A DNA stretch of 64,000 nucleotides from a virus: positions 32,001-96,000 of IMG/VR virus record IMGVR_UViG_3300035001_000008. One strand, given 5' to 3'. Made by a program: the position numbers and the translations under genes. Positions 5,115 through 22,859 of this stretch are shown one piece after another (position 1 is the stretch's first letter; each line of letters opens with the position of its first letter). The notes under the pieces were generated by a model. The model was given only the letters and a program-made list of their open reading frames with translations. It made no database searches and was not told the DNA's origin.

Positions 5115-5152
5115 TTATGTCTAATGTTAGATGAGTCTATTCTAACTAAATA

Positions 5153-5884
5153 CTAAAACCCGTACCGCCAGCGGGCATAATATCCGCGAACATCAGCATG
5201 GGTGAAAACAGATGAGCTTGCTAAGCCCCCTCGATTACCCCACCAAGGATCTAGCTTTGCATATACATCAGCAGGGAGCATACCCTCTACTCTAAAATCA
5301 ACACCAAGCCCCGTCATGTGGGTGCTCTGTGTTGCCCCATTAACCCTACGGTTAGTAGCTGGGTCGCGATACCAGGAATTAATATAAATAGGTCTATCTA
5401 GAAATTCTCTAATATCTTGCATAGCCTTAGCAGATGAAATGATGCCATCTACTACCCTAGCATTGGCAGGGGGTCTATAAGCTTTACCTGAGAAGTGCAA
5501 AGCCTCACCCCAAGTAAAATTACCATTCTGGATAATAGGCTGATTGCTGTAGAACGTACTGCTTTGACCCGGTAGCTTAAAAGCTACTCCAGGGTTCTTT
5601 ACATCAGGCGGTTCATCTTTAGGCTTGTTATTAGGGCTGTACCCTGCTGCATCCTCAACGTGTGGTTTATAAACGTGCCAAGTATTGCGGCCTGTTGGGT
5701 GAATATCTTTAATATTAAATTTAGTAGGGTCAAACGTTACCAATAGGTAATCATCAAGCTCACTATAAGACTGAATCGGGTATGTCCCTGCTTTAATAAA
5801 AGCTTTGTCAGAGTCAGGTAAAACTGAAGCTGCTTTAGTTGAGGTTTTAACCCAAGTAGGTGCCGTGATAGTTAGAGTATGCAT
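5153..5884 (-). CDS. Endolysin, peptidase M15A family, with an N-terminal putative cell-wall-binding domain
   Basis: INSWYRDPATNRRVNGATQSTHMTGLGVDF...FTHADVRG (Zn ligands H, D, H). Confidence 0.9.
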   Translation of the reverse strand: MHTLTITAPTWVKTSTKAASVLPDSDKAFIKAGTYPIQSYSELDDYLLVTFDPTKFNIKDIHPTGRNTWHVYKPHVEDAAGYSPNNKPKDEPPDVKNPGVAFKLPGQSSTFYSNQPIIQNGNFTWGEALHFSGKAYRPPANARVVDGIISSAKAMQDIREFLDRPIYINSWYRDPATNRRVNGATQSTHMTGLGVDFRVEGMLPADVYAKLDPWWGNRGGLASSSVFTHADVRGYYARWRYGF

Positions 5885-6151
5885 TTATTCTTCAGTCCCA
5901 CTTACATTTTCAGATTGAATAGATGCGGCTACTGGAGTGCCTACAATAGCTTCAGTAGCTTTCTTACGTCCCTCGATAGTGCCGTGTAGAGTAATAGCAC
6001 CTGCAAACAAGGCCGCGATTTCAATTTGATTAGGAACTCTGAATTTACCCGTATCAGGATTGTATAGAGCAACTACTGTACTAAGTACAAGTACAACAAA
6101 AGCACCTACAGCATTCTGAACGGTACTTGATTTATAAACTGGCTTAGACAT
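5885..6151 (-). CDS. Putative holin
   Basis: 88 aa with two hydrophobic segments, YKSSTV...IEGRKKAT pattern, immediately upstream of the endolysin. Confidence 0.6.
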   Translation of the reverse strand: MSKPVYKSSTVQNAVGAFVVLVLSTVVALYNPDTGKFRVPNQIEIAALFAGAITLHGTIEGRKKATEAIVGTPVAASIQSENVSGTEE

Positions 6152-7799
6152 TTTTAATTACCCTTTTATAGTGCTGATAGGCATCGTAAGAATGCTGACC
6201 TTCAATCTTGAATGTGTTATTGGTAGGAATACCGCTGAATGCTGCAAGCATAGTTAGACCGTATAGAGTCTCATACCCATGTGTAAGTTCTTCAAACTTA
6301 TCGCCATGCTTGAGATAAAGCGCTTCAAGGTAATGTCGTACTCTAGCGGCTTCTACATCGTCTGTAATAGGCCCAACAGATTGAGCGTAAGCATAGACAG
6401 TATCTACAATAGAAACGGTTGCAGGCGCTTCAGGCGTAGGCTCAACCTCTTCTATAGGGCCAATAATAGATTCGATAATCTCTTCAACTACTGGCAAATC
6501 TTCATCATGAATGTCTACGTTCACATTCTCAACAAGTTCTTTGCCAATTAACTCGCTTACTTTTCGTCTGACCATATCAAATAGCACTGTGAGGTTTAGT
6601 ATGCAGTTTTTTAAGGGTGTGCCTAACGTTTTGGGTTTCAGCCGGGTTTACAGGAATTGAAAACCAAATGCTAATTACATAGGACAATGCAGTAGAGATT
6701 ACAGCCCAAGTATCAATCAACCTAAACTTAAACCAATAAACTAACCACATCAACGGATAGTAATCAGTTCTGACTATGTAAACTAACTGTCTGCTGTAAT
6801 CGGTTTGCACAACCTTATAAGACACTTGAGCGTTTACACCAAGATCATAAGGTGAAACTAATACACATTGTGATTCAGGTATATCCATATCAAATAGCAC
6901 TAGCTTGAGGAATAAGATTCAAATTACGTTCAGGTGTGCCCGCTACCCTACGTCGCCAATAAGTTACACCTGTTACCTCTTTACTTTCAACTACTCCATC
7001 TAACTTAAGTTTACTCAAAATGATTGAAGTAACAGGTCTAATAGTGCCTGAAAGGTTTGTGATTTCATAAATGGATTTCCAATGAAAATTAAGATTGCGG
7101 TAAACTAAATCCTGCATTAAATAAAAAAGGGTAGACGGGCTACCCCCATTGTATAACATTAGATTGTTTGATTAATTAGAGTAAGTCTAACTGTTTCTGC
7201 ATCTCTGCAATGATTGTAGACATAAACTCTTTTTGACTAGGAGGCATCACTCGATTACCAACATCCTTAGTACCTGGTGAATCCATATCAGGGTAGGCAG
7301 TCTTAACCGCTTGATTGAATACGCAGTCTGCATACTCTAAACATGCTTCCCATGCATTATCAAAACTGAGTGACCATTGGAGGTAATCATTGCGCCATTC
7401 CCAAATGAAGATGTCGCAGAAAAAACTAGGGTCTTTATCCCTGAGTAGGTGCAAGTCCTCTACAGCAGTATCTAACCATTCAAAAGATGCTGATAGGATT
7501 TTGTCTTTATCGTGAATAAGATTCCATGTCTCCGCATTAATAGAGTGAGTCTGCATTGCATACCCAGCAGGTAGACCTTCCACAGCCTCTACTATCTGCC
7601 AATGCCCTAGAGTCTTAAATTCTATATCAATCATCCTTACAGGAGCACCATGCCATGTAACAGGAGTGATATAGAAACAGCTACCTTGTTTAGGCTTACG
7701 CTTAATCGCTTTAGTGTAAGGGATAGCTTCAAACTCACCTGAAGCATTAGCCCGTTGTAAGTCTAACTTATTGAACATATTACTCCTATATTTACTCAT
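6144..7799 (-). other. Four hypothetical ORFs (6144..6587, 6577..6900, 6890..7159 winged-HTH-like, 7176..7799)
   Basis: Overlapping start/stop junctions in one minus-strand operon; 6890..7159 shows a wHTH pattern (SIYEIT..SGT...TSIILSKL..DGVVES). Confidence 0.6.
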
Positions 7800-7912
7800 C
7801 CATTATACGACATTAAACAAACTCAGCATTTACTTAAAGTGCGGTTGACGGTAGGTAAGCATCACTATAAAAGCTGTCGCAATGTGAGACTTAGTTATCT
7901 AATTAAGTGTAA

Positions 7913-8101
7913 GTATATCAACTTATATCCACATAATTCAATATGTTTATGTATACCCTAGCGCTCACCTTGCTTCGCAGGTCGCTACTATGCCAAGTGG
8001 TTATCTATAAAACCTCAGCTATTGTAGTCAGCCCGCGAAGCAAGGGCTGGCGACCACGTATTTATATACTTAATGAATTATGTGGATATAAGTTGATATA
8101 C
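7913..8101. repeat. Perfect 28-bp inverted repeat with a nested 11-bp inverted repeat
   Basis: GTATATCAACTTATATCCACATAATTCA (7913-7940) / TGAATTATGTGGATATAAGTTGATATAC (8074-8101); inner CCTTGCTTCGC (7968-7978) / GCGAAGCAAGG (8035-8045). Confidence 0.95.
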
Positions 8102-8148
8102 CTAGAGCCTCTATCTAAATGTTTGAATAAAAAAATAGCGCCTCTGTC

Positions 8149-8178
8149 GTTGCACGTTAGACAGAAAAGCGCTATACT
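8149..8178 (+). promoter_or_regulatory. Sigma70-type promoter overlapped by the operator motif, upstream of Rep-like gene A
   Basis: TTGCAC-N17-TATACT with GTTAGAC directly after the -35. Confidence 0.7.
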
Positions 8179-8210
8179 TGATTTAGTAATAATCAACTTA
8201 AGTATAACTC

Positions 8211-9164
8211 ATGAACAGCACGTTAGACAACGTTCCTCTATATTTTCTAGATATTGACCCAGACTGGAAAGACAAAATCGACACATGGGCATCTAATATG
8301 CCTAAGTCTTCCCTACTAGGTGTCATCGGTCTAACTCAGCATTTACTCTACTCACCAGCACACGCCATAGGAGCCTTAAAGAAGGATGTTGTAAGGCTTG
8401 ATGGGTGTTTGCTGTATAGCGTTGAGGAAGATGCCCTAGCAGAGCTAAATCAGCCTAGGTCATTTCAATGTGCATTAACTCACATTCAGAAGCATCTAGT
8501 TAGATACTGGATAGGTGCTACCTCAAATAGAATCACCCTCAGAAAGTACATTGCTAAGCTTTCCGGTCTAGGTGCATTCAGAACTGAGTCAGAATGGCAC
8601 CCAGGCGGCAAACAGCCTATGTTGTTCCATAACCTGAACTTTGATTTACTACTGGGTATTTACGAAAGGCTAGAAAAAGCTTGGTTTGAACGTGGGTTTA
8701 CAGTTCATGCATTCCCTAAGCATCGTGGGTTTGTAGGTAACTTACTGTTTCAAGCATGGACTAAGGTAATCTACGGTGTAGAGAATGCTAAGCCTAACCG
8801 AAGTGGGCAAGGTTCTACATTCGATTATGTATCTAAGGCTAGACACTCTCAGATAGCCTCTGACAAAGATGAGAGAGCTTTTCTAGAGTATTCTGCCCGT
8901 GTAGATGCTGAGCCTAGTAAAAGGTCTATTGAGCCTCCTAAGCCCGTCCTAACGGCTGTATATGAGGCAGCTAAGGCTAAGATTGATTTTGTATTCACTG
9001 ATTGGTTTTATCGCTTTGACTTTAAGCCTAAAAATCCTATCAAAGTTGAAAACCTTGTAACTAACCCTTATAGCCCTGAGCATTCCAGTTTGTATTGTGA
9101 ACCTCCTATGGAAGAATATGACGACGATATGAGAGCTTATGTAGAATCAATTCCTTTTAATTAA
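8211..9164 (+). CDS. Putative replication initiator / DNA-binding protein A (paralogue of 45895..47223)
   Basis: Shares L..LG.F, LL..YE.LE..F, P.H..F and P.RSG.GS blocks with 45895..47223; lies beside a large inverted repeat; function inferred. Confidence 0.4.
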   Translation: MNSTLDNVPLYFLDIDPDWKDKIDTWASNMPKSSLLGVIGLTQHLLYSPAHAIGALKKDVVRLDGCLLYSVEEDALAELNQPRSFQCALTHIQKHLVRYWIGATSNRITLRKYIAKLSGLGAFRTESEWHPGGKQPMLFHNLNFDLLLGIYERLEKAWFERGFTVHAFPKHRGFVGNLLFQAWTKVIYGVENAKPNRSGQGSTFDYVSKARHSQIASDKDERAFLEYSARVDAEPSKRSIEPPKPVLTAVYEAAKAKIDFVFTDWFYRFDFKPKNPIKVENLVTNPYSPEHSSLYCEPPMEEYDDDMRAYVESIPFN

Positions 9165-9200
9165 TTAAAAACTCAACCTAACTATACAAAGGACTTCAAA

Positions 9201-9980
9201 ATGACTAGAGGCGTTTATACAATTTGTTGCGTTCCAACGGGAAAAGTTTATGTAGGTTCAAGCAAGAATATTGAATCGAGATGGATAAGACATAAACGAG
9301 ACTTAAAAAAGAATAGACATCATTCTAAAAACTTGCAAGATGCATGGAATAAATACTCTGAAACCGATTTTAAGTTTTGTATTGTTGAAGAAGTGATTGA
9401 TGGTAATTTACTAGAGTTTGAATATAGATGGACACGAAAGCTAGACGCTTACAAAATAGGGTTTAATAGTTCACCTTTTATACAAAGACCTACTATTGTT
9501 TATTATCTTGAAGTCACTAAAAACGGCAATACAGTTTATAAAGTAGGTAAGACTCAGCAAAGCATCGAAAAACGCTTTGAAGAAGATACTTGCGAAATTA
9601 AAGTATTGGGTTTAGTGAAAATGGCTAATAAAGCAGATGCTACTTGGTTCATTCAATATATACTCACAAAGTATGAAGAATTTAAGTATGATGGCAGTGA
9701 TTTATTAATTAGCGGAAATACTCAGTTGTTTAGTAAAGATATTTTTAATTTAAGCAGCAAGTTTAGCAATAACCCTGACAACCTAGAATGTATCATCAAG
9801 GAATACATTAAGAAGACTCGCAAAAAACCTAACATTGTAGGTAGGCAACTAAGTGAGTATGAAAAATCCCTCAAACCTAGAGTATGGAGATCTCATATGG
9901 CGGGTTCCCCAAAAGAACTATTAGAGAAATACGGAATTATAGAACTCTGTAGAGATTACAGTGATAGAAAACGTTCTTAA
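9201..9980 (+). CDS. GIY-YIG homing endonuclease with two GIY-YIG-type domains
   Basis: N-terminal GVYTI...VYVGSS.NI..RW..H..L....H.S..LQ.AWNKY; second domain YYLEV...YKVGKT...EKRF...G.TQLFSKDIFNL. Confidence 0.88.
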   Translation: MTRGVYTICCVPTGKVYVGSSKNIESRWIRHKRDLKKNRHHSKNLQDAWNKYSETDFKFCIVEEVIDGNLLEFEYRWTRKLDAYKIGFNSSPFIQRPTIVYYLEVTKNGNTVYKVGKTQQSIEKRFEEDTCEIKVLGLVKMANKADATWFIQYILTKYEEFKYDGSDLLISGNTQLFSKDIFNLSSKFSNNPDNLECIIKEYIKKTRKKPNIVGRQLSEYEKSLKPRVWRSHMAGSPKELLEKYGIIELCRDYSDRKRS

Positions 9981-10088
9981 CTCAAAAGCCCCTCTAAAGG
10001 GGCGTTAAACTTCACCCTAATTTCATCTAACGCTATATGCTTTTAAGCTTTAGGGGTGTTATAGTAGGAGTAATTAAGAGGAAAGGAA

Positions 10089-10901
10089 ATGTCAACCGTT
10101 AAATTAGAATACCCAAGTGACAACGGCCTGAGTTTGGTAGAATACCGTTTTTATTTAATGGATACTATTTTGTATTTAGATGACTACACTGAATATAATC
10201 GTCCCAGTAAACGGCATTCTTTCAAGTCTGTAAAATCTTATGCCAGGTTGGATAAACGTAGGTCTACTATTGACGTAAGCGAAGTCCCACTTACTGAAGA
10301 AATTAAACAAGATGCCTTAAATGCATATATTTCCAAGCTTCAAGTTAAACTGTGGGATAAAAAGTAATGAATAAGACTCACTTGCAAATGGATTTAGATA
10401 TGATCCATGAAAGAGATAGACTTAAAAAGCTAGTTGAGCAGATTAAATATAAATGTGAGTTAGTATCAGGCGACGTTTCACCCGGTATTGTAGATGCTAC
10501 CTATTTAGCTGAGGATATCTTAGAATTGATTAGTAAGACTGAGGTTGAATAATGGAGTTGGCTAAATCTGTAGGCGGCATAGCAAACATAAGCAAGGGAA
10601 CAATTGTTTCCCCTCCCTTGCTCAATATGCTATGGCTAAAAGCGCTAAGAATAGACATCACGCTAACCGTTTAGTTAAAAACTATACTAAGTTACTCAAG
10701 CAGACTCATCCTAGTATGCTTACTTTTGTAGGGTTTGGTTACAGCTACAATAAAGACCCGTTTGATTGCGGTAATCCTGGCTGTTTTGTTTGCCATCATG
10801 AGCCTACAGGTAAATCTAGCTCAGCCAATAAAAAGAAAGATGCTAATGTAAGTACTGATTCAATTGAGGATTACTATGAACAGTTGGAAGGCAGAGGGTA
10901 A
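10089..10901 (+). other. Promoter-led cassette of small hypothetical ORFs (10089..10367, 10367..10552, 10632..10901)
   Basis: Follows hairpin 9988-10003, operator 10025-10038 and RBS GAGGAAAGGAA; last ORF has DCGNPGCFVCH. Confidence 0.6.
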
Positions 10902-11015
10902 ACCACAGGTTAAGCCTAAAAAGCGGCTTAAAAAACTAAAGCAGTGGAATAAGGCTAATAAACAATTAGCCGCTAAACTAAAGACTGGACTCAACCAAGG
11001 CCCACAAGGGTCTTT

Positions 11016-12995
11016 TTATTTGTACTCTAACTTAGCCAATTGCTTAAGTTCACTCTGACTCAATTCAGCAGCCCTTTCAAGAGGTATATACTTTCTATCA
11101 GATACTCTGCTATCTAATTCAATAGGGTCGCTTACAGACCCATCTAGACGTAGCTCTACCCATTCATCGCTACGCTTAGCGACATCAAAAGATTTAAGTT
11201 CACTTAATTTAATTTCTTTAATGCTTTTCATAAACTCAGATGGCATCGCACCTAAGTAAGTAGCCTTAGCTTCTTTTAATGACGTTACACCTAAGATAAA
11301 TTTATATTCGTCAAATTCACCGTTAATTACTTGTTCAACTACGAATAGTTTAGGTGAATCTAATTTAGTGCCGACATAACAATCAAGTGCCATGCCATCA
11401 GCACCTTTAGTATTTTGGATATATCCATAACCCGCAGTTAAAGTTTTACCGTGTCTGGTATCAAAAGGTAGGTATTGCAGACCAATAGAAAGACCTTGCC
11501 ATTTAATTACTTTTTTAGCTTTAGTTAAATCATCCAAATTAAATTTAGAATCCCAATCTTCTCTAGGTTTAGTTTTTTCTTTAGGTTCAGGTTCTTTTAC
11601 TTCAGGGGTAGTGCCATCTTCCATTGAATCAGTGTCAGCCTCTATAACGGCTTCTAAGGCTTCAGTAAAATCATCTCTAAGTGTAATCTGCTGATTGAAC
11701 TTGTAACCGTTGAGCCTCTGTCTAGATTCACTTGGGTGCATTGAACCCGATTCAATACGGATTTTATCAGTTTCAGCAAATAACTTTTCAATTTCAGCTT
11801 GTTCTTTACCAGTTAGTTGTAACGCAGATTCCCAAGTAAAACCGAATCCTTTAGGAATGGTGCCGCCTGTCGGCCCGTCTTTTGAGAGCAGCACGTATTC
11901 CCCTAAACGTCTACGTGGTGCAGTCCATATGGTGTTTTGGAAATTTGCTACAAACTCAGACCATAATCTTTCGTCAGTTTTACCCCCTTCACTTAATGCA
12001 TTTTGTCCAGAATGGCCTAATAGTTTAGATTTGGGGAAACCTGTAGCAGTTAATAGAAAATCTTCCATTCTTTGTAGAACAGGGTCGATACCTCCAAACG
12101 ACCTATTCAAATATGAGACTGTCTCCGACTCAGAATCGTGCATTACGCCCTTAAGGGACGAAATTCCCATCTGAATAGCGACAAATCTATTAACTAAAGC
12201 TGACGTATCGCCGCTTTGAGCAAGTGTTGCTAGCCCTTTTAGTCCATAGGTAAAAACTGAATAATCAGCAAGCATTCCACCTACTGAATAATAAGATTGT
12301 AAATAAGTAGATAATTCCGAAAAGCAAGCTTGAATAGCCGAGTCATTATACCCACCGTTATATCTCAATCCCCTAGCCATTAACCTTTTGCCAGGGAATC
12401 TAAGAACTCTATCACTATGAATTATCTGCGTATTTAATGACTTAAATTCATCGGATACATCTTGATTAATATTAAATCGGTAATCTTTAGGATTAACAAT
12501 AGAACCCGATGTATTTGGTTGAAGCATATCCCGTTCAAGTACTTCAAGCCAAGCAACACTTTTTATGTTGTCACGGTCTACAGGTTCATTTATTTCTCTT
12601 CCATCTTGTAGATCTAGGACTATCCAGCCATCTCCATTTAAACGACCTTCTACTGAAGCTTCTGTAAATGCTTCAATTACTCCTAAGTTTGAGCAATACT
12701 CATCCATTGCCGATACTAAATCGGATGAATCCTCTCCCTCAGTATGGCCGAATGAAAAGGTGCCCCAGTGCTTTGAAGCCGCCTCACAAGGCAATAGCAC
12801 AAGCTTCTCAACAATTTTATTTGAACGGAATAAACCTAGACGTTCTTCAGATGTAAGAATCCTAGGAGCGATATTGACTTCTACCCCTTCGATTTTACTA
12901 CGCGCACTACCATGACCCGTATTATTATTAGACACAGATGCACTGAGAGCTGAAATCAGCGACCCATCGTTCCTAAAGTCGTCTAAGTCTGTCAT
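11016..12995 (-). CDS. Phage portal protein (DUF1073-type) fused to a C-terminal pyrophosphatase-like (InPase) domain
   Basis: RL.GDGWIVL...EP, IHSDRVLRF.G, ATGFP..KLLG.....L..GG..D...W portal motifs; GYGYIQNTKGADGMALDCYVG...DEYKFILG PPase-like motifs. Confidence 0.82.
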   Translation of the reverse strand: MTDLDDFRNDGSLISALSASVSNNNTGHGSARSKIEGVEVNIAPRILTSEERLGLFRSNKIVEKLVLLPCEAASKHWGTFSFGHTEGEDSSDLVSAMDEYCSNLGVIEAFTEASVEGRLNGDGWIVLDLQDGREINEPVDRDNIKSVAWLEVLERDMLQPNTSGSIVNPKDYRFNINQDVSDEFKSLNTQIIHSDRVLRFPGKRLMARGLRYNGGYNDSAIQACFSELSTYLQSYYSVGGMLADYSVFTYGLKGLATLAQSGDTSALVNRFVAIQMGISSLKGVMHDSESETVSYLNRSFGGIDPVLQRMEDFLLTATGFPKSKLLGHSGQNALSEGGKTDERLWSEFVANFQNTIWTAPRRRLGEYVLLSKDGPTGGTIPKGFGFTWESALQLTGKEQAEIEKLFAETDKIRIESGSMHPSESRQRLNGYKFNQQITLRDDFTEALEAVIEADTDSMEDGTTPEVKEPEPKEKTKPREDWDSKFNLDDLTKAKKVIKWQGLSIGLQYLPFDTRHGKTLTAGYGYIQNTKGADGMALDCYVGTKLDSPKLFVVEQVINGEFDEYKFILGVTSLKEAKATYLGAMPSEFMKSIKEIKLSELKSFDVAKRSDEWVELRLDGSVSDPIELDSRVSDRKYIPLERAAELSQSELKQLAKLEYK

Positions 12996-13119
12996 ATTAA
13001 ATAAAAATTTGATATAATGCCTTACCTAAGTCTATCTAATCTTTATCTAATGAGTATTGACGATTAAACAAGCAAGCGTTAAACTAAAAGGGTAAGTTTG
13101 AAATTAAGGAATTAATTAA

Positions 13120-13242
13120 ATGTCTAACCAAGCTAAGATTGCTCAACTACGGCAACAATACCAACAAGCTAAATCTGAGCCAGAAGCACGTAAGATTTTG
13201 CTTGAGATTCAAAAGCTGGAAAGGGAAGATTTCGGCATTTAA
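13120..13242 (+). CDS. 40-aa hypothetical protein not in the ORF track (MSNQAKIAQLRQQY...EDFGI)
   Basis: TTGACG-N17-TAAACT promoter at 13057-13085 and AAGGA RBS upstream. Confidence 0.6.
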   Translation: MSNQAKIAQLRQQYQQAKSEPEARKILLEIQKLEREDFGI

Positions 13243-13772
13243 GTTAACGTTAAATTAATGCATCTACCTTATCTAAAACTAACTAAGGATTAAATTAAAT
13301 AGATATGCAACCAGGTTTGACTAAACTAAAAGCAGAGTTAGCATTGTCTGCTGAGATTGAAGCCAAACGTGCTTCAATCTCTGTTGAGCAAGCAGTGAAA
13401 GCTAACATTATATCTACCCTTGCTCAAGCTGCTGACTGGTAGACTTAAAGGGTACATCTACCTTAAAGTAAATCTAAATAAGGACTTAATCAAATGGCTT
13501 TATCTACAGAGACAATTAATAACAAACTGGCTAACGATTACGCAACAAGGTTTATCCTACTTCTCAAAAGTGAACCCTGGGATGTTGAATCAAAAAGCCA
13601 ACTTTCTATGCTCTTTGATTTTTACTCTGCTGGTGTGCTAGAAACAACCGCACCGATAAGCAGAGAAATTCTAAAACTAGACGCTGTAATCGGTATAGCT
13701 AAGTCAATTGTTCTAAATCAAAATGGATTGCTTTAGTTAAACTTAAAGGGGTTTAATCACCCCTTGAAATAT

Positions 13773-13848
13773 CTCTCATTAACTCAGCGCATAGAGTAGC
13801 GGGTTTCTACCCCGTTTGTCCTAGGTTGGAATCCTAGATGAGAGGCCA
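13773..13848 (+). tRNA. trnR: tRNA-Arg(UCU) with encoded CCA and non-canonical C19/G56
   Basis: Acceptor CTCTCAT/ATGAGAG, D-arm ACTC-AGCGCATA-GAGT, anticodon arm GCGGG-TTTCTAC-CCCGT, T-arm CTAGG-TTGGAAT-CCTAG, G73, CCA. Confidence 0.85.
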
Positions 13849-13921
13849 GGGCGTTTGGCAGAGCGGATTATGCACCATGCTCATAACGTGGTTTAGACTG
13901 GTTCAATTCCAGTAGCGCCCA
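13849..13921 (+). tRNA. tRNA with CAU anticodon (Ile2 or elongator Met); no encoded CCA
   Basis: Acceptor GGGCGTT/AGCGCCC, anticodon arm CCATG-CTCATAA-CGTGG, T-arm ACTGG-TTCAATT-CCAGT, A73. Confidence 0.92.
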
Positions 13922-13943
13922 TCTCAATTAAATAAAGGAAACA

Positions 13944-14159
13944 ATGACAGATAAACCAACGCCTAAACGAATGTCAATTAATTTAACGGGTGATGCTGCT
14001 GAGTATCTAGAAGATCTTGCTGAATCGCAGGGCATAACTCAAACTGAAGCACTACGTAGAGCTATTGCAACCGAATCTTATATTCAGAAATCAATCAAAG
14101 AAGGCTATAGGGTTTTACTTCAGAACAAGGATGAAATTAGAGAAATTGTTTTTAGGTAA
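13944..14159 (+). CDS. Ribbon-helix-helix (CopG-family) regulator
   Basis: KRMSINLTGDAAEYLEDLAESQGITQTEALRRAIATESY. Confidence 0.85.
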   Translation: MTDKPTPKRMSINLTGDAAEYLEDLAESQGITQTEALRRAIATESYIQKSIKEGYRVLLQNKDEIREIVFR

Positions 14160-14227
14160 GGGTTAATTAAAACAACAGACTCATCTAAAATAGGTATTAC
14201 TATACTTATTTCAAAAGTGCATCAAAC

Positions 14228-15069
14228 ATGCTCAGCAAACATTTATTTGTCAAAAGAAATACTGTTGTTCTTAAATCAACGGCTACTGCTTGGGATCTAT
14301 CTACTGAGTACGATGTTAATTTATTCACCGTTGAAAGACAATTAAAGTTATTTGGAATATGTCTACATTCCAAAGCAATCTTTGCTGATTTTGATGTAAA
14401 TGTCTGTAATGAGTATATTAGGGAATTTAAGGATTAAATAAATGGAAACTAATTATCAAAATGAACTTGAAGAAGTTCTAAATTACTGCCTTAAACACAA
14501 ATACTCATTTAATTATTCCTATACGCCGCATTCAAGTAGACATTACTTCTACATCACTTCAGATGACTTTGATGTAATGGAGCAAGGAATAGCACACACT
14601 AAAGAAAAAGCGTTTGCAGATTTTATGTTAGATTTTAAGGCACGTAGAATTAAATATAAGGATTAATTAAATGATTTTCCTTTTAATTGAAAAATATCTA
14701 AAAGACTCAAGTATTGAAGTTACTAAAGTTAATAATTCACTGAGAGTTAAGTTATTAAACAGCACTGGATACTTTTATGCTGACATGGCGCTATCTGATG
14801 AGCATTTAGTTACAGTATCAGAACTACCTTACACTTTAGAATATGCGGGTAAGTCATCAGGGTATGGAGAAAAGGGTATTCTAACACTCAATACTAGATT
14901 AAACTCTGCTTGGTTAGCTACTCAAGACAATAAGTTAATTCTTAAAAGCACTCAACCAGAAAGAGATTTAACTAAATATACGCTCCTAAGAGATTTAGCT
15001 TACTTTGTTAAAGCACATGCCTATATTTGCTACAAAATTGAAAATGGTGTGATGGGTAAAAGAGAATAA
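14228..15069 (+). other. Three hypothetical ORFs (14228..14437, 14442..14666, 14671..15069)
   Basis: Closely spaced same-strand ORFs with AAGGA-type RBSs. Confidence 0.6.
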
Positions 15070-15073
15070 AAAC

Positions 15074-15097
15074 AAAGCCCCAATTAAGGGGCTTTTT
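15074..15097. terminator. Probable bidirectional intrinsic terminator
   Basis: AAAGCCCC-AATTAA-GGGGCTTTTT. Confidence 0.75.
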
Positions 15098-15162
15098 AGT
15101 TTGATTTAATACTCTTATGTATAATCTTGTATCACGTTAGATATTTGTGTTAAAATTATAGA

Positions 15163-16356
15163 ATGAGAAACGTAGCCAAGGTTAGAATTTATCCCACTCC
15201 TGAGCAACAGCAGTTGTTAACGCAGTCTTTTGGTTGTGCTAGGTGGTTTTGGAATTATGCTCTAGCTTTGAATAACGAAACTTATAAAGAGACTGGAAAA
15301 GGTTTATCTAGGCAAGGCTATAACGACTTGCTGCCCGACTTAAAGAAAGAGCATCCTTGGTTAAAGGATTGCTATTCTCAAGTTTTGCAGTCTGTCAGCT
15401 TAAACTTGTCTAGGGCTTTTATCAACTTCTTTGAAGGACGGGCAAAATACCCTAACTTCAAGAGCAAGCATGGAAAACAATCTATCCAGTATCCTCAACA
15501 TGTTAAATTGCTAAATGGCAAAATTAAGCTACCTAAAATAGGAGAAGTTAAAGCAAAACTACACCGTACATTTGAAGGAAAGCTAAAGACTGTAACCATT
15601 AGCCTAAACAAAGCAGGTAAGTATCACGCTTCTTTATTGTTTGATGATGGTACACCTGATTTAGTGCCTAGCTCAGAAGGTAAAGCTATTGGAATTGACT
15701 TAGGGTTAACTCACTTCGCTATCACCTCAGATGGTTCTAAATATGATAACCCCAGACATTTAAGCAAGCGGGCTAAGAATCTAAAGCGTAAGCAACAGAA
15801 ACTATCTCGCAAACAAAAAGGGTCTGGTAAGCGTAACAAAGCCCGCAAGATTGTCGCACGGGTACATGATCGTATTGCCAATACTCGTAAAGATTTTCAG
15901 CATAAACTATCCCGTAAAATTGTTGACGAAAACCAAGTCATCATTACTGAGGATTTAGCTGTTAAGAACATGGTTAAAAATCACAATCTAGCCAAAGCAA
16001 TCTCTGATTGTGGATGGTCTAGCTTTACAACCATGCTCAAATACAAGGCCGAGAAAGAAGGTAAAGTCTATTTACAGATTGGTAGATTTTTTCCTTCAAG
16101 TAAGACTTGTAATGTATGCCTACATCAAGTTGATAGCTTATCTCTAAATATTCGTAGTTGGGAATGTCCTAGCTGTAAAACAAAGCATGATAGAGATGTG
16201 AATGCTGCTATCAATATCAGAGATGAAGGTCTAAGGATTCTAGCGTTAGGAACTAGCGCTACTGCCCAAGGAGGGAAGGTAAGTCCAAAGCGGGGGCGTA
16301 GGTCATCCGTAGAGGCTCATCCTGTTGAGTTGGGAAATCCAAAACTTACCATATAG
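15163..16356 (+). CDS. tnpB: RNA-guided endonuclease TnpB (IS200/IS605 OrfB)
   Basis: N-terminal RIYPT.EQ..LL...FGC.R; RuvC-I IGIDLG, RuvC-II ITEDL, Zn finger CNVC..CPSC, RuvC-III HDRDVNAAINI. Confidence 0.96.
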   Translation: MRNVAKVRIYPTPEQQQLLTQSFGCARWFWNYALALNNETYKETGKGLSRQGYNDLLPDLKKEHPWLKDCYSQVLQSVSLNLSRAFINFFEGRAKYPNFKSKHGKQSIQYPQHVKLLNGKIKLPKIGEVKAKLHRTFEGKLKTVTISLNKAGKYHASLLFDDGTPDLVPSSEGKAIGIDLGLTHFAITSDGSKYDNPRHLSKRAKNLKRKQQKLSRKQKGSGKRNKARKIVARVHDRIANTRKDFQHKLSRKIVDENQVIITEDLAVKNMVKNHNLAKAISDCGWSSFTTMLKYKAEKEGKVYLQIGRFFPSSKTCNVCLHQVDSLSLNIRSWECPSCKTKHDRDVNAAINIRDEGLRILALGTSATAQGGKVSPKRGRRSSVEAHPVELGNPKLTI

Positions 16357-16381
16357 ATTAGGTAAGTTTTGGATAGTTCAC
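16338..16381 (+). ncRNA. Right-end hairpin / 3' part of the omegaRNA scaffold; predicted guide begins TTAACTATCTTCTCTC at 16382
   Basis: TCCAAAACTTACC-ATATAGATTA-GGTAAGTTTTGGA followed by TAGTTCAC, overlapping the tnpB stop. Confidence 0.6.
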
Positions 16382-16741
16382 TTAACTATCTTCTCTCCAA
16401 AATCCTACTACTTTAAGGTTTTTATTTAGACCCATAACACTATGTAAGACTTTACAGATAAGGTCTTTGTTAGCCTCAAAGTCTTTTTGAAGTTCATCGT
16501 CTAAAATACCATCCTCCTTAGCGGATTGATTCGCATATACACATAACTGAAATACCTTTTCCATATACATTGAATCAATGTGATCTGCTGATGTGTAATT
16601 AGCTAACTTAGTTAAAACAGTTGGGTTTACTGAATCATTAGCCCCTACAACATTAGAGAAATGAGCACCTACGTTTAATACAGTTTTATACAAAAAGTCA
16701 GCAGTCTTACCATCCCAATTGTCACCTTTAATTGTATTCAT
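16382..16741 (-). CDS. Hypothetical protein
   Basis: Directly downstream of thyX on the same strand; its stop codon abuts the IS right end. Confidence 0.6.
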   Translation of the reverse strand: MNTIKGDNWDGKTADFLYKTVLNVGAHFSNVVGANDSVNPTVLTKLANYTSADHIDSMYMEKVFQLCVYANQSAKEDGILDDELQKDFEANKDLICKVLHSVMGLNKNLKVVGFWREDS

Positions 16742-16752
16742 TGATTACCGTC

Positions 16753-17559
16753 CTAGGGTGCTAGCTTTGCCCGCTTAAATCGGTTCTTTTCGTAAAACTC
16801 CCAAACCTCAGGAACCCATTCTTCTAGATAAGGAACCATCAGTTCACAAAGCCATTGTATTTCAAGTTGGGCATCGGCCTTTGCCCTTAAGTCTAAAAAG
16901 TGTAGCAGACTTCTAAGGTTAAAGCTAACTACAAAGTGTTGTCTTACATCAAATGGAATTAAGCCTCTAGCATGTTCTTCTGAAAAACCTTGCTCAATCC
17001 TATCACGGTAATGAAAAGCAGCATTCATGGCTAGGTTAATATCTTCAGCCCTATCAGATTTTGTATATTCATACTTTTTACCCTTCCTATCGGTGTAAAA
17101 ACCCACAGGCCGTAGGTAGAACGTTTTCTCGATAGCTTCTAGTACGTCATCAGCCTCTATAGCATTGCAGATACGCTTACCAGAGTATCGAAAACTCTGC
17201 ACATCGAAAGAGGTAGAAATGCGATGTGTGCGGGCTTGCTGCATTACTGAATGGGGAAAATAGCCCACGTTGAATGTAATTTGCGGGTGTTCTATGACGC
17301 CCCAATGCCCAAACTTGACACAATGGCTAATTACCCGTCTACCAGCCTCAGACTCCTTTAGAATCTCACTAGGGTTCATCGGGTCTACCCATAGCCCGTT
17401 GTATGCTGTTACAGGTTCGACAGGATTAAACAACTCATCTGATACTAGTTTCTCTGAGTAGTCAGTATGCATAGCTGCATAACATAGCTTTTGCGGGTTG
17501 GGTGTTTTGGCTAACAACTCAACTCTAAATAATTTATCCATAAATCCCTTATATAACAA
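16753..17559 (-). CDS. thyX: FAD-dependent thymidylate synthase
   Basis: GHWGVIEHPQITF, QQARTHRISTSFDVQSFRY, NLRSLLHFLDLR...AQLEI. Confidence 0.96.
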   Translation of the reverse strand: MLYKGFMDKLFRVELLAKTPNPQKLCYAAMHTDYSEKLVSDELFNPVEPVTAYNGLWVDPMNPSEILKESEAGRRVISHCVKFGHWGVIEHPQITFNVGYFPHSVMQQARTHRISTSFDVQSFRYSGKRICNAIEADDVLEAIEKTFYLRPVGFYTDRKGKKYEYTKSDRAEDINLAMNAAFHYRDRIEQGFSEEHARGLIPFDVRQHFVVSFNLRSLLHFLDLRAKADAQLEIQWLCELMVPYLEEWVPEVWEFYEKNRFKRAKLAP

Positions 17560-17623
17560 GCGTTTACCATACCATTCTACTCTATCTAATGTTAAACTAG
17601 GGGAGTGATTAGGACTAAATTAA

Positions 17624-18439
17624 ATGAAATACGCAACGTCGCTATACTACGGTGGAAATCTAGTTAATGCTATTCAGTGCAAACATCAAGACTTTCTAAA
17701 AATTATACCGATGTGCCCTGAGTGCAAAGAACCCGTATTCCTTAGACAGGCATCTAAAACTGCTAGTGCTTGCTGGTGCCATTTTAAGGGAAGTAAGTCT
17801 GATATTGCACTGTGTGAGCTAAGGGTAAACAGTTATTCAGATAACAAGCGTAAAAGACTAGCTAATACAGCAAGAAATCAATTACTCGCATTGTTACGTA
17901 AACACTTTTGGAAAGTATGGCATTCCGAACCAAATAAAATAAAAACTCATGAACTGAATGAAGCTAACTTATTGACAAATCATAAGAGCGAATGGAAGAC
18001 TGAGCTTTATAAAATTATGTGGTGGCACCACATAAACCACGCTGAAAACTCTAAGCAGATGCTTGAGTTTTATATTAATCACTATCTCGTAGAAACTAGG
18101 AACTTTACAGATGGTATGAAAGGTGAGGATAACGTTTTAAGGGATCTTGAAAAGTGCTATCAAGAAAGTACGTTACTGCATAGACATTATCAACAAAACG
18201 TTGTAAGCGTGGTGTTTGATTTCTTGAGTACTGCAAAGACTCGCGAGATAACATGTGCTATGTATTTACTTGCCATACATAGCGCCAATACAATGGATGC
18301 TTTTAACTTAGGTGATAACGGAATATTAGACCTTAACTTACTCAAAACAAATAAAGATGTGAGGTTCAAGCTTACTGAAAACGTTTTAATTTCTCTTACA
18401 GTTGCACCTTGGTGGGATATGTTGAGGGAGGTTATTTAA
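17624..18439 (+). CDS. Hypothetical protein with an N-terminal CoiA-like Zn-finger (CPECKEPVFLR...H)
   Basis: C-x2-C...H...C cluster in the first 70 aa. Confidence 0.5.
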   Translation: MKYATSLYYGGNLVNAIQCKHQDFLKIIPMCPECKEPVFLRQASKTASACWCHFKGSKSDIALCELRVNSYSDNKRKRLANTARNQLLALLRKHFWKVWHSEPNKIKTHELNEANLLTNHKSEWKTELYKIMWWHHINHAENSKQMLEFYINHYLVETRNFTDGMKGEDNVLRDLEKCYQESTLLHRHYQQNVVSVVFDFLSTAKTREITCAMYLLAIHSANTMDAFNLGDNGILDLNLLKTNKDVRFKLTENVLISLTVAPWWDMLREVI

Positions 18440-20127
18440 TAATGGATACCGTTCAACTAGGATTACTTGAATACCATGCAATACCCGCTAAAAATGTAGT
18501 TATTCAAAAAGCAGCAACGTTAAGTATAATTGACTCCCTTAAGCAACCTCAATTAGAAATAGTTGAAAGTGCTTATATAAAAGTAGCTAATGGTTACAAA
18601 AAAATACTATTAGTTGCGCTGATGGGAGTCGGGAAGACGATCCTTGCTGGTTGGATAATTAGAGATGCCGTTAAAGCTTCTAAAGAGTGTGTGTTCTTTG
18701 TTCACTTCGACACGCTAGTTAATCAAACTGTAGAAGAATTTAGCCGATTAGGGTTAACGGCTAATGTTTTGCAAGGTAATAAAAAGTTTAACAAGCATTC
18801 ATGTGTTGCTGTTGTTTCAATTCAGTCCCTTGAATCTAAATTAAAAAAGGGTGCTTCTGTATCAGACATTCTAGGGCATAGAGATGTTTTATTTTTTGAT
18901 GAATGTCACGAATTAGCTTTTAGAGAATCGTTTGATTTAATTGATAAGCATTACCCCGATGCAATTAAGTTTGGTTTAACGGCTACACCTTGGCGATTGT
19001 CTAAGAAGGAATGGTTAGGGCAGAAATTTGAGACTACTGTAGAGGGTTGGCAACCGCCTAAGTTGATTAAGGAGGGTATTAGCGTACATGCCAGGTGCTA
19101 TGCCATTGGCGGGGGTGTTATCCACGTTACAGAGGCCGATGTAGGCTTTGATGGGGATTACTCTGAAGGGTTGATGGGTAAGCAGGCTAGTGAGGATGCA
19201 GCGCTAGAGTATACATTTCAGGAATGGCAACGCTTGAGCGGTGATAGACCCACGATCATGGTAGGCTCTACCATTGAACAAGCTAAGGCCACTACCGCGA
19301 AGTTTCTAGAGCATGGCATCCCTACTGAGATGGTTATAGGATCTACCTCTAAGAAGCAACGCAAGGATATCTTTGCTAGGGTTGCCTGTGGTCAGACTCA
19401 AGTTATAACGTCTGTGGGTGCCCTGGTAGCTGGGTTTAATCTACCCATCCTCTCATCCATACTATTTGTCAGAGCTACTAAATCAAAGTCTCTGTTCTTT
19501 CAGTGCTGTGGTCGCCCAGCAAGGTCTTATCCTGGTAAGGAAGACTACCTAATTTTAGACTTTGGAGGTAACTTAAAACGTTTTGGCAATCCTATGGATT
19601 TTCAGGACTATTCAATCGATGGTGAAATGCCTGAAGATAACGGAGAATCATTCAAAGATTGTCCTAACTGTGGTCATACGCAGAGAGTATTTAACTCTAA
19701 GTGTGAAAAGTGCGGATATGAATTTAATTCACCTGAAGAAGAAATAGAAGAGGAAACCCATTACCAAGAGTTAGTCGAATATACAAATGGATTAACCAAA
19801 CAAAAGATTAAAAATATCAGAGCTTGGCGTAAGATGGCATTTAAGCAATGGTCTATTAATAGACAAGCTTCAGATACTACATCGCCTGATAGAGCTATTC
19901 AATTATTTTTAGATGAGTACGGACATAACCCACCAGCAGACTGGATTATTAATTCAGCTCTTACCCGTAGGTACTCAAAATCAAAACTACGTGATTACAT
20001 TGCTTACTTAAAAGCTCACATTAAAAATCCTAAGTATGCAAAAGGATGGTTAAACTATCATTATCGACTTGAAACAGGGCAAGATATACCGGATAATCAA
20101 TTAGATTTGTTATTGAGGGATGTTTGA
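18409..20127 (+). CDS. SF2 DEAD/DEAH-box helicase (YejH/RadD-like) with Zn ribbon; start may be 18442
   Basis: GVGKT, DECH, LTATP, GFNLP, QCCGR..R, CPNC/CEKC. Confidence 0.92.
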   Translation: MVGYVEGGYLIMDTVQLGLLEYHAIPAKNVVIQKAATLSIIDSLKQPQLEIVESAYIKVANGYKKILLVALMGVGKTILAGWIIRDAVKASKECVFFVHFDTLVNQTVEEFSRLGLTANVLQGNKKFNKHSCVAVVSIQSLESKLKKGASVSDILGHRDVLFFDECHELAFRESFDLIDKHYPDAIKFGLTATPWRLSKKEWLGQKFETTVEGWQPPKLIKEGISVHARCYAIGGGVIHVTEADVGFDGDYSEGLMGKQASEDAALEYTFQEWQRLSGDRPTIMVGSTIEQAKATTAKFLEHGIPTEMVIGSTSKKQRKDIFARVACGQTQVITSVGALVAGFNLPILSSILFVRATKSKSLFFQCCGRPARSYPGKEDYLILDFGGNLKRFGNPMDFQDYSIDGEMPEDNGESFKDCPNCGHTQRVFNSKCEKCGYEFNSPEEEIEEETHYQELVEYTNGLTKQKIKNIRAWRKMAFKQWSINRQASDTTSPDRAIQLFLDEYGHNPPADWIINSALTRRYSKSKLRDYIAYLKAHIKNPKYAKGWLNYHYRLETGQDIPDNQLDLLLRDV

Positions 20128-20509
20128 TGAAAGTCTATATAATTCAAGATTACGATTACGCAGAGTCAACAAATACATTTGGCGCTGTCATGTCACATGA
20201 AGCCTTAAATATACAAAACCTTTGGGATGAGTTTAGGCGTATTTATAAAGTTCCACTTGAAAACGCTAATAAGTGGAACTTTGAACTGAGTGATTACAGC
20301 ATTAAAGCTTTTGATAAATTAAAGGCGGATGGTATTATTGAGGTTAAGTGCTCTAATAACTTTAGCCCAGATTCTTTTATACCTTACTTTGTTGATTGGC
20401 TGCTTAAACGTAAGGGATGTTTATTAGTAGACTTTGAGTATTCTAAAGTTGCAACTAAAACTAAGTATCTGAAAGAGTCTAGAAAATCAACTTGATTTAC
20501 TTTTAAGGG

Positions 20510-20761
20510 ATGTCGAATACCATGAATTGTAAATTTGATATTTCCGTCAATAAATATGAAGACACTTTTATTGCTTACTCAAAAGCGTTTAACTTGCGTG
20601 GAGTATCTAATACAAAAGATGGTGCTCTTAAAGCTCTATCATCCAACCTACATGCAGACTATAAAAGCCTATCAAGTGAAAAGCTTGAAGACCTAGATAA
20701 AAGTGCAATTAAATTACTTGAGTTGTATAAATTAGTGTTTGGGATTTTTGGTAATGCTTAA
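20510..20761 (+). CDS. Hypothetical protein, HicB-like fold possible
   Basis: V.KYEDTFIAYS..FNL.GVSNTKDGAL..L pattern. Confidence 0.35.
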   Translation: MSNTMNCKFDISVNKYEDTFIAYSKAFNLRGVSNTKDGALKALSSNLHADYKSLSSEKLEDLDKSAIKLLELYKLVFGIFGNA

Positions 20762-21071
20762 ATACAACGTCTATGTAAATGGTAAATACCATCACTCTAA
20801 TGCTTCCTTTAAAGATTACACTCATGATGTTGGCAAAGAAGGTATTAACTCAATAGGAACAACTACAGCCGTAGTAAAGGTTGAAGTTATTGGCAGTAAT
20901 GGCGATAGAATATGGTTTTAATTTCGGTTAAACCGATAAAACTATTCGGTTTTCAATAATTAACCCTTGAATTTTGATTGATTAAAATTGAATAGTAGAG
21001 TTCAATTAGTATTATGGGTGCTATTAAAAAAGAAGTATTTAACTCTGGATGCCCACCTTAACAACATTAAG

Positions 21072-21098
21072 AACCCCTAGCCATAAACTAGGGGTTTT
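21072..21098. terminator. Intrinsic terminator of the repeated CCCCTAG...CTAGGGG family
   Basis: AACCCCTAG-CCATAAA-CTAGGGGTTTT. Confidence 0.75.
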
Positions 21099-21101
21099 GT
21101 T

Positions 21102-21605
21102 TTATACATATTTAACAAACCTATTCCATACATTCACTACAGGTTTACCAGTAGCCTCAGCATACTTAATGCAATTGTAAGTACCCCCATCCTCAACACC
21201 ATCCCACAGGGCTATCATTTTATTTGAGTTATCGACAATGGCTTTATTACGGTGCTGAAACTTCCATGCTGAATAAGGGGGAGGTGAACAGTAGTTAACC
21301 TCAGTAGCATAACTAAGTAAATTAAAGTAGATATCCTTGTCTGACTTATTCCATACACTTTCTTGACCCTCAAAGGGCACCATAGCGATTAAAGGTAATC
21401 CTAGTAGCTTTGCCACCTTAGCGGCGGCTATATCCAGCCCTAGAGCCATACCGCTAACTATATTTAAATCGCATCCAATCAACTCAATTTCAAGTTGAAT
21501 TACAGCAGTCATTAAATCTACTAAACGGTTGTCTATATTGGCAGAGTGCTTAATTAAGCGCTGTCTGCGATGGCCTGTAAAACCTAGCGATGTAAGGTGA
21601 ATCAT
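21102..21605 (-). CDS. YspA/DUF1273-like SLOG-family protein
   Basis: GFTGHR, VSGMALGLDIAAA, PFEGQE..W, RN..IVD.S..IA.WDG...GGTYNCI.YA. Confidence 0.9.
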   Translation of the reverse strand: MIHLTSLGFTGHRRQRLIKHSANIDNRLVDLMTAVIQLEIELIGCDLNIVSGMALGLDIAAAKVAKLLGLPLIAMVPFEGQESVWNKSDKDIYFNLLSYATEVNYCSPPPYSAWKFQHRNKAIVDNSNKMIALWDGVEDGGTYNCIKYAEATGKPVVNVWNRFVKYV

Positions 21606-22859
21606 TGAATAAAGTTTATTTAATTCCTGCTATGTCTATTTTACACCTTATCTAAAGGCTGTGTTATATTAGACAAAGTTAAAGGACATTTAAATGCTAA
21701 CTAAAACTTCTCTAATCGACCAACTAGACGACGTTACAGCTAAATCAGAAACGCTTGAATCTAAGGTATCTACCCTAACCGATGCCCTTGATTCAGTTCA
21801 ATACGTTCTAGCTTGTCTGTGTCGTGCTAAATGTATTGAGCCTACAGACTTTGGACACACGGCTATCGACGTAGTTAATAAATCAATTGACTCTGAATTT
21901 ATATCAGCGCTTATCGCTGAACATGGCGAGGATGGATTAATTGAATTAATGGCTTGACATTCAATCTATAGCCTATATAATATTAGACAGGGGTAACACC
22001 CTGTTTTTTATTTAAGGAACCTAATATGCCTGTTACTTTTTTGACCGATACCGAATTGTTTGCTGTCCTATCTAACCCACTAAATCCCGACTATAGTACT
22101 GAATATTATGTTTCAGCTACTAATGAACTGAGTAAGCGTCATGCATTTATCAAACTACAAGATGGCCTGGGCAATGCCCAGTAGCACCGTAAAGACCCCC
22201 TTACCTTTAAGGCAGTCTATTCTAGCTAACCCTATATTCCATCAGTTCTTAGCCTGTTATAGAAGGTCTGACGATAAACCTAACTACTATCCCATGTGGG
22301 TTAAATATAATCCTTTCAACTTAGATTGGGGACATCTAAAAAAGTTAGGTATTCAAACTATCAACACTGGAAAACTACCTCCTTACTTTACTTTTGAACA
22401 ACTTCTAAATGCTGTAGGCTATCAAATAAATTAAACTCTTAGCCCCTATAAAGGGGCTTTTTCGTGCTTACCGTACTTATCAGTAACAGCCCTTAGGTTA
22501 AAATTAAAATAAAAGGTAAACTATGGATGCTGAAACTGAATTTAAGTTAATTACTGACTTTAAGGCTTTGACAAAAGAAGACCTTGAAAGAATTGCTTTG
22601 CAATTGACAAAAGCTTATAACAATTCCACTAACTTAAATAGTCAAGCTTCAGTTAAACTTGCATTGCAAGCTGATGTAATTAATAGTTTAATGGCTGAGG
22701 TTGAAAGATCTTCACCATTGCTAGAAGGTGCCGAAAAGATTAAAAAAGCGTTTAGCTTTTGGGTACTTTATTCAATGTTAACGACTGTTGGAATATTGGC
22801 AATGTTTATCCTGGTACTGTTCAAATAAAAACCCTAGGGGTTAGCTAGGGTAGAGTGAT

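Follow-up and report, generated by a model that had tools for sequence, protein, structure and literature searches.

G19 and C56, whose tertiary pair joins the D-loop to the T-loop at the elbow, count among the most conserved, "invariant" nucleotides of tRNA (PMC10424219), and many enzymes and RNAs dock on the pair they form. The window, by which we mean the whole 64,000-nucleotide stretch analysed here, contains a tRNA-Arg(UCU) gene with C at position 19 and G at position 56, and thereby raises the question of what a reversed elbow pair signifies: a working tRNA in which one structural pair has replaced another, a disguise against a factor that reads the elbow, or a gene in decay or diverted to some other use. 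We are confident, short of certainty, that the gene is a working prophage tRNA-Arg(UCU) with an elbow reversal of unchanged geometry, inherited from a mobile lineage and kept by purifying selection; that it is expressed, processed and charged, and in which order the substitutions arose, we infer from sequence. Literature searches returned engineered mutants and statements of invariance only, with no description of natural C19:G56 tRNAs, and the reversal is apparently an undescribed but recurrent natural variant.

The prophage and its host

The window corresponds to G000:C36:136680-200679 of a 77-contig genome of 5.9 Mb, and lies inside an island of about 35-44% GC (the window itself being about 37% GC) in a host genome of 55.3% GC. 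An exact direct repeat of 122 bp marks both ends of the island (C36:106025-106146 and 231434-231555); it comprises the 5'-terminal 43 nt of the tRNA-Phe gene of the host and 79 bp upstream of that gene, a duplication of the 5' half of the tRNA gene and not of the usual 3' half. The 13 phycobilisome PF00502 matches in the host genome identify the host as a cyanobacterium, and the portal and terminase genes identify the low-GC island as a phage (Table 1); the island is an integrated temperate phage, a prophage, at the tRNA-Phe of a cyanobacterium. The portal gene is the nearest large gene to the tRNA pair and is divergently oriented; residues 494-602 of its product form a C-terminal domain that matches PF18823 'InPase' and is fused to or encoded beside portals in other cyanobacterial genomes. 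Other island genes encode an Erf-like annealing protein, ThyX, a helicase, a ParB-like protein, GIY-YIG and HNH homing endonucleases, and TnpB. Two of the endonuclease/TnpB genes lie less than 4 kb from the tRNA pair, an arrangement reminiscent of the SegB-tRNA association in T4.

Searches for relatives of the prophage comprised (i) megablast and blastn queries of INPHARED phages with the tRNA region, which gave no match; (ii) a back-translated portal search of IMG/VR, which found none; (iii) a portal search of 400 genomes of the host's class, with a best identity of at most 37% and no tRNA alongside; and (iv) a DNA search of 100 host relatives, which returned only ordinary tRNA-Arg/Met similarity. 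Public DNA reads include a 269-nt fragment identical to the prophage that ends short of the tRNA.

Table 1. Positions of the island, its marker genes and the tRNA features (window numbering, except for the island)
Feature	Position	Strand	Evidence
Low-GC integrated element, 125.4 kb, containing the whole window 1..64000	C36:106025-231555		GC profile, direct repeat
Phage portal protein with C-terminal InPase-like domain	11016..12995	-	phrog_146 9.9e-58; PF06381 4.8e-41; PF18823 5.5e-22
Terminase large subunit	37463..39049	-	phrog_979 2e-119
GIY-YIG homing endonuclease, TnpB (IS605 OrfB/Cas12f-like), further homing/HNH genes	9201-9980, 15163-16356, 39039-39953, 55933-56787	+, +, -, +	
7-bp hairpin (AAGGGGT / ACCCCTT, 6-nt loop)	13746..13765	+	MFE fold of 13740-13925
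tRNA-Arg(UCU) gene, 76 nt including encoded CCA	13773..13848	+	ARAGORN, Infernal RF00005, MFE fold
tRNA-Arg(UCU) anticodon	13806-13808	+	
tRNA-Arg(UCU) D-loop bases	G18 = 13789, C19 = 13790, A20 = 13791		
tRNA-Arg(UCU) T-loop bases	T54 = 13826, T55 = 13827, G56 = 13828		
tRNA-Arg(UCU) identity bases	A20 = 13791, C35 = 13807, U36 = 13808, G73 = 13845		
tRNA with anticodon CAT	13849..13921	+	ARAGORN; RF00005 51.3 bits

Structure of the tRNA-Arg(UCU) gene

ARAGORN and Infernal with the Rfam model RF00005 both call the gene, with anticodon TCT and identical ends, and Infernal aligns it over the full model (1-71) at 53.6 bits against a gathering threshold of 29 (E 9.5e-11). In this alignment the D-loop AGCGCAuA reads A14 G15 C16 G18 C19 A20 u20a A21 and the T-loop TTGGAAT reads T54 T55 G56 G57 A58 A59 T60, placing C and G where G19 and C56 are expected and keeping the potential of the two bases to pair. 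All stems are paired, with seven Watson-Crick pairs in the acceptor stem, four pairs in the D stem, five (one of them G-U) in the anticodon stem and five in the T stem, and the tertiary bases U8, A14, G15:C48, G18, A21, U33, A37, G46, G53:C61, and T54:A58 are all present at their expected positions, as is T55. The identity set read by bacterial ArgRS, A20, C35, U/G36, and A/G73 (PMC9976931), is complete, with U at 36 and G at 73. The cloverleaf is the minimum-free-energy fold of the gene, and the segment 13740-13925 folds into two cloverleaves with a 7-bp hairpin upstream. Apart from the elbow pair, the gene has the character of an RF00005 class I elongator, with stems of 7/4/5/5 bp and a score above gathering.

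The host carries its own tRNA-Arg(UCU) at C45:85615-85687, with the 8-nt D-loop AGCGGATA and the T-loop TTCGATC. The prophage D-loop has the same length and differs from it solely by G19->C, which makes the assignment of C19 secure. In the other 43 tRNAs of the host genome the D-loop always has GG and the T-loop always has TTC. The initial annotation had reported C19 and G56 in a tRNA with intact stems, A20, G73, and CCA, and every detail is confirmed by the two programs and by the host comparison. In the same genome, a 91-nt 'tRNA-Thr(tgt)' called by ARAGORN at C71:36896-36986 (+), with the D-loop AGGTGCA and the T-loop TTCGGGC, was not recovered by Infernal with RF00005, and is perhaps a spurious call or a gene with an interruption.

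The integrity of the molecule bears directly on whether the gene is a decaying or non-functional relic, or serves outside translation, as a site of recombination or attachment, as a primer, or as a signal for processing, a reading to which we give a very small probability. It could draw on the Infernal score, which lies at the low end among the tRNAs of the host genome, on the TnpB and homing endonuclease genes nearby, and on the fact that tRNA genes are common integration sites. Nevertheless, the low score is expected from two changes at strongly conserved model positions, and a chromosomal C19:G56 gene of Brevundimonas scores about equal, at 52.5 bits. Against the reading stand also the intact stems, identity elements and other conserved tertiary bases, a second change that exactly restores pairing, which is unexpected under decay, and a strong match to codon usage. 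The suggestion in the initial annotation that the tRNA might have a non-translational role finds no support, given the intact structure and a match to the most over-used arginine codon of the prophage.

The adjoining tRNA and the probable decoding role

The spacer between the two tRNA genes is of zero nucleotides (13848/13849), the encoded CCA of tRNA-Arg(UCU) being followed at once by position +1 of a tRNA with anticodon CAT. The latter displays a canonical elbow (GG / TTCAATT) and, as in most host tRNAs, no encoded CCA. Its 1:72 bases are paired and its anticodon stem lacks a run of three G:C pairs, which indicates that it is not an initiator. Raw identity to the three host CAT tRNAs (50, 47, and 43 of 73) was non-discriminating, and its identity was approached instead with RF04354, the consensus of which we take to be the reverse complement of plastid trnI-CAU. 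The antisense match scores 36.7 bits for the prophage tRNA(CAT), 37.6 bits for the tRNA(CAT) on host contig C77, and 25.7 bits for that on C63, the host's other elongator-type CAT tRNA, the initiator giving none. The score close to that of the C77 gene, the non-initiator features, and the 3.7-fold enrichment of ATA in island genes (9.6 per 1000 codons in island ORFs compared with 2.6 in the host) all suggest that the second tRNA is probably tRNA-Ile2, which carries lysidine and reads AUA, rather than tRNA-Met.

The tRNA pair is located amid small genes of the same strand, and both tRNAs would presumably be excised from a longer transcript; a scan for promoters and terminators around them gave counts no higher than shuffled expectation. 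The absence of a spacer suggests that a single RNase P cut at the 5' end of tRNA(CAT) would directly free the encoded CCA end of tRNA-Arg(UCU). The predicted hairpin 7 nt upstream of the 5' end of tRNA-Arg, which a consensus scan did not score as a terminator, might serve in processing or stabilizing the precursor.

AGA is the commonest arginine codon of the prophage, with 16.0 per 1000 codons and 36% of arginine codons in island ORFs, 7-fold above the host, in whose ORFs the corresponding values are 2.3 per 1000 and 4%. The gene has the two marks of a codon-compensating phage tRNA, being phage-encoded and having a cognate codon that is commoner in the phage than in the host, which retains its own canonical tRNA-Arg(UCU). 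Decoding A-ending codons for an AT-rich phage in a GC-rich host is a classical role of phage tRNAs, and tRNA-Arg(UCU) and the probable tRNA-Ile2 would supply decoders for AGA and AUA, the two A-ending codons most in demand in such a setting. For this genome the outcome is an ordinary one: the prophage supplies an AGA decoder of its own and, probably, one for AUA.

Covariation of positions 19 and 56 in viral and metagenome tRNAs

Viral and metagenome contigs were surveyed with patterns in which an Arg-type D-arm was fixed and position 56 was either free or fixed. In IMG/VR, D-loops ending in G-C-A-T-A with C or G at 56 occur at 37 loci, all of them tRNAs, including (i) 32 loci with C19 and G56; (ii) a single locus with C19 and C56 (L144), which also has acceptor-stem mismatches; and (iii) four ordinary tRNAs (GGCATA, TTCG). 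The normal GGATA D-loop combined with G56, that is, G19 and G56, was found at zero IMG/VR loci, and the normal tRNA-Arg(UCU) with G19 and C56 at 117 or more. The covariation that the initial annotation had proposed to look for among phage tRNAs is thus present, C19 standing alone once and G56 never. Metagenome contigs, searched for the anticodon UCU only, gave 52 loci, again all tRNAs, of which 43 carry C19 and G56, six carry C19 and C56, and three are ordinary. The six represent four distinct sequences, and G56 alone was never seen in the Arg-type D-arm surveys of either collection. The two changes occur together far more often than chance would allow, and their covariation is near-perfect.

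The 32 viral loci are tRNA-Arg genes with UCU, CCU, and ACG anticodons and widely different stems, so that both changes recur together in independent lineages. Among them, eight phages of 86-160 kb from IMG sample 3300045988 carry a tRNA-Arg(ACG) with the exact D-arm and T-loop of the window gene set in other acceptor, anticodon, and T stems. Three of these phages, which are complete and of 146-158 kb (L039, L040, and L042), encode, in addition to the flipped tRNA-Arg(ACG), several tRNAs of 85-92 nt with the aberrant T-loops CGCACAT, ATCGACA, and AGCATAG. A loop-only pattern, AGCGCATA..GTTGGAATC, was discarded as a survey tool: 60 of its 67 IMG/VR loci are chance matches in coding DNA, as its information content predicts, and only the tRNAs of the 3300045988 phages are real. 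Eight single-tRNA "viral" C19:G56 matches are identical to bacterial chromosomal genes and, judged by this identity, are probably host tRNAs at prophage ends.

Three of the metagenome loci with C19 alone (L309, L310, and L312, which comprise two distinct sequences) have the same acceptor and T stems as the C19 and G56 gene L311, which indicates that single-change intermediates exist; together with the surveys, this suggests that G19C probably precedes C56G.

Relatives in cyanobacterial tRNA arrays

The closest sequences found to the window gene are tRNA-Arg(UCU) genes in tRNA clusters, at 74-75% identity, comprising (i) a Symploca MAG (L275); (ii) metagenome contigs with 28 (L300) and 21 (L303) tRNAs in 7-10 kb; and (iii) the shorter fragments L296, L301, L305, and L324. 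Both their D-loop, AGCGCATA, and their T-loop, TTGGAAT, match the window gene exactly, and the pairs 10:25 and 50:64 differ from it by compensated changes. Within the arrays, tRNA-Arg(UCU) alone is flipped among the 21-28 tRNAs. The clusters are the long tRNA arrays described for filamentous cyanobacteria in a report whose text makes no mention of the elbow variant (PMC8421152).

The nearest relatives therefore carry both changes, and this, with the near-perfect covariation, upholds the proposal of the initial annotation that the two changes form a compensatory pair under selection and are not the product of decay. Its expectation that relatives would not carry one change only held for these nearest relatives and not throughout, as 6 of the 49 metagenome UCU loci with C19 carry C19 alone.

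The reversal in ordinary chromosomes and in other isotypes

A scan of 185,579 species genomes returned at least 120 matches, and 118 of the 120 listed are tRNA-Arg(CCU) genes with C19:G56 on ordinary chromosomal contigs, so that at least 118 such genes exist. They fall into three families, including (i) Brevundimonas/Caulobacterales, in at least 30 genomes; (ii) Blastocatellia/Pyrinomonadaceae, in at least 44 genomes; and (iii) Acidobacteriaceae (Granulicella, Edaphobacter, and others), in at least 35 genomes, the remaining listed matches belonging to a few gammaproteobacterial and other MAGs. Among the matches listed, C19:G56 is fixed in the housekeeping tRNA-Arg(CCU) of Caulobacterales and of two acidobacterial clades. 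Extraction of all tRNAs from the complete chromosome of Brevundimonas albigilva gave a single tRNA-Arg(CCU) gene, which is of the C19:G56 type, the ACG, CCG, and UCU arginine tRNAs and all others (48-49 tRNAs) being canonical. These chromosomal genes suggest that C19:G56 is compatible with ordinary translation, in the sense of tolerance and not of full equivalence; since AGG can also be read by tRNA-Arg(UCU), the CCU genes are possibly dispensable.

Outside arginine, a non-Arg D-arm control pattern recovered 15 real C19 and G56 tRNAs from viral contigs (Pro, Ile, Thr, Ala, Phe, Gly, and His), so that phage-borne C19:G56 amounts to roughly 24 Arg loci compared with 15 for all other tested isotypes together. 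The state of position 56 was tallied over the distinct tRNAs within loci chosen for a flipped gene: C56 accompanies a GG D-loop in 321 tRNAs, G56 occurs without GG in 71 and with GG in one, U56, mostly opposite A19, in 11, and A56 opposite U19 in four. All four Watson-Crick combinations at 19:56 are thus found in nature, as is characteristic of a structural base pair. Judged from these samples, the reversal is rare overall, at less than about 1% of phage tRNAs and clustered in particular phages, and accounts for no more than about 9% of the viral tRNA-Arg(UCU) genes that share the D-stem of the window gene; G56 occurs in none of the 282 distinct bystander tRNAs at the 117 listed viral loci with a normal tRNA-Arg(UCU).

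Two groups of tRNAs depart further from the usual pattern. Class I tRNAs with an Arg-type body, the anticodon GCT or ACT, A20, C35, U36, a short variable loop, and C19:G56, which ARAGORN labels 'Ser', occur at L124:1981-2055(-), L147, L128:13949-14024(-), L145, and L169:6543-6619(-), that is, on viral contigs of 20.8-135 kb (135, 46, 32, and 21 kb for L124, L128, L145, and L147, respectively) and on the chromosome of one Pseudomonadales MAG; if charged by ArgRS, such tRNAs would read AGY serine codons as arginine. In addition, L130 (IMGVR_UViG_3300037993_001242, 199 kb) and L148/L161 (3300017938_000007, 108 kb) combine many elbow variants in one tRNA cluster, with C19:G56 in Arg(UCU), Arg(CCU), Ser(UGA), Ala(CGC), and Met, U19:A56 in Arg(GCG) and Arg(CCG), and many tRNAs with A54 (T-loops ATCG...).

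The distribution of the reversal bears on whether it is adaptive, hiding the tRNA-Arg of phages and arrays from a factor that reads the G19:C56 face, for instance a defence or toxin nuclease directed at tRNA-Arg, or letting a phage factor distinguish phage tRNAs from those of the host. That phage tRNAs escape anticodon nucleases is an established idea, and the pattern has features that such a benefit might produce: the reversal is rare and missing from the bystander tRNAs, it recurs in phages and tRNA arrays with a bias towards Arg, it singles out tRNA-Arg(UCU) in the cyanobacterial arrays, and some phages carry several reversed tRNAs (L130/L148, L152). Discrimination between phage and host, however, cannot explain its presence in the housekeeping tRNA-Arg(CCU) of three clades; known tRNA-Arg nucleases such as colicin D target the anticodon loop; neither RtcB nor an Rnl2-type ligase is encoded on the island, both being present in the host genome on other contigs; and no candidate nuclease was identified, nor did a literature search find a paper tying the tRNA elbow to phage defence. 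We consider this explanation improbable, and the evasion of a nuclease or elbow sensor that the initial annotation had envisaged is left without support by the chromosomal tRNA-Arg(CCU) genes and by an island that lacks RNA-repair genes.

Probable origin and maintenance of the reversed pair

The preferred reading, a working tRNA with a compensated elbow, asks little of the molecule. C19:G56 is the reversed Watson-Crick pair of the same geometry, and would keep both the lock between D-loop and T-loop and the flat outer face of the elbow. An engineered E. coli tRNA with G19C/C56G reportedly keeps its loop-loop interaction and its aminoacylation, which is lost when the pair is disrupted (PMC3602588); elbow binders are in general viewed as stacking on the flat outer pair (PMC10424219). 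On the other hand, the in vitro activity of bacterial TruB and of the protein-only RNase P of plants depends on position 56 (PMC5039416), which suggests that some maturation steps could differ in a C19:G56 tRNA.

The prophage gene most likely inherited the reversal from a mobile-element tRNA-Arg lineage in which it was already fixed. The route to that state probably led from G19:C56 through C19.C56, tolerated in minor or redundant tRNAs, to C19:G56; the concentration of the reversal in such tRNAs (bacterial CCU genes, phage and array copies) fits an intermediate that is mildly deleterious. Purifying selection would then keep both partners, and no purpose beyond maintenance of the pair need be invoked.

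Simple neutral compensation does not account for the concentration of the reversal in arginine tRNAs. As a speculation, ArgRS, which binds A20 beside the pair, might relax or alter the constraint and so give the bias. A more far-reaching and improbable proposal holds that reversed-elbow tRNA-Arg is a horizontally mobile lineage, spread over phages, arrays, and some chromosomes, in which the C19:G56 face alters the treatment of the tRNA by elbow readers and yields a private arginine decoder. Such readers could include the N-terminal domain of ArgRS by A20, RNase P, TruB/TrmA, the ribosomal L1 stalk, or a tRNA-Arg-directed nuclease, and a private decoder, if real, would stay active when the host tRNA-Arg is attacked or limited.

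Implications

Taken together, 19:56 behaves as an ordinary covarying Watson-Crick pair in which C:G and, more rarely, A:U and U:A replace G:C. The replacements accumulate chiefly in arginine tRNAs, those of mobile elements as well as the housekeeping tRNA-Arg(CCU) that entire clades share. New here are the clades with a chromosomal tRNA-Arg(CCU) of this type, the relatives in cyanobacterial arrays, the intermediates with C19 alone, and the codon-usage rationale. The variant bears on how elbow factors recognize tRNA, by shape rather than by base identity, and reversed-elbow tRNAs are natural substrates on which ArgRS, RNase P, TruB, and T-loop-directed nucleases could be tested. It also concerns annotation, as tRNA gene finders and pseudogene filters give reversed-elbow genes low scores.

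Comparison with known systems

Compared to the host tRNA-Arg(UCU) and the argU type of E. coli, the window gene shares the class I cloverleaf, the anticodon, the 8-nt D-loop with A20 and U20a, the 5-nt variable loop, G73, and the Arg identity elements. It differs from the host gene in C19:G56, the encoded CCA, an A-U pair at 10:25, and a U32/C38 anticodon loop, and the overall identity of 67% indicates that it is no recent host copy. The cyanobacterial arrays contain its nearest relatives, but the window gene belongs to a phage and not to an array of 20-40 tRNAs, and its stems differ from theirs by compensated pairs. With the chromosomal tRNA-Arg(CCU) of the three clades it shares C19:G56 in an Arg-type D-arm (..GCATA / TTGG..), whereas those genes are another isoacceptor, housekeeping in role, with 9-nt D-loops, and not phage-borne. 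The engineered G19C/C56G tRNA carries the same double change, but is a laboratory construct of another isotype.

Finally, as in the tRNA clusters of T4-type phages, the window gene is phage-borne and reads a codon that the phage over-uses and the host seldom employs. T4 tRNAs are known to be made from dimeric precursors, and the two window tRNAs are likewise directly abutted; the window phage differs in having only two tRNAs, in being a temperate, integrated, cyanophage-like element of 125 kb, and in the reversed elbow pair.
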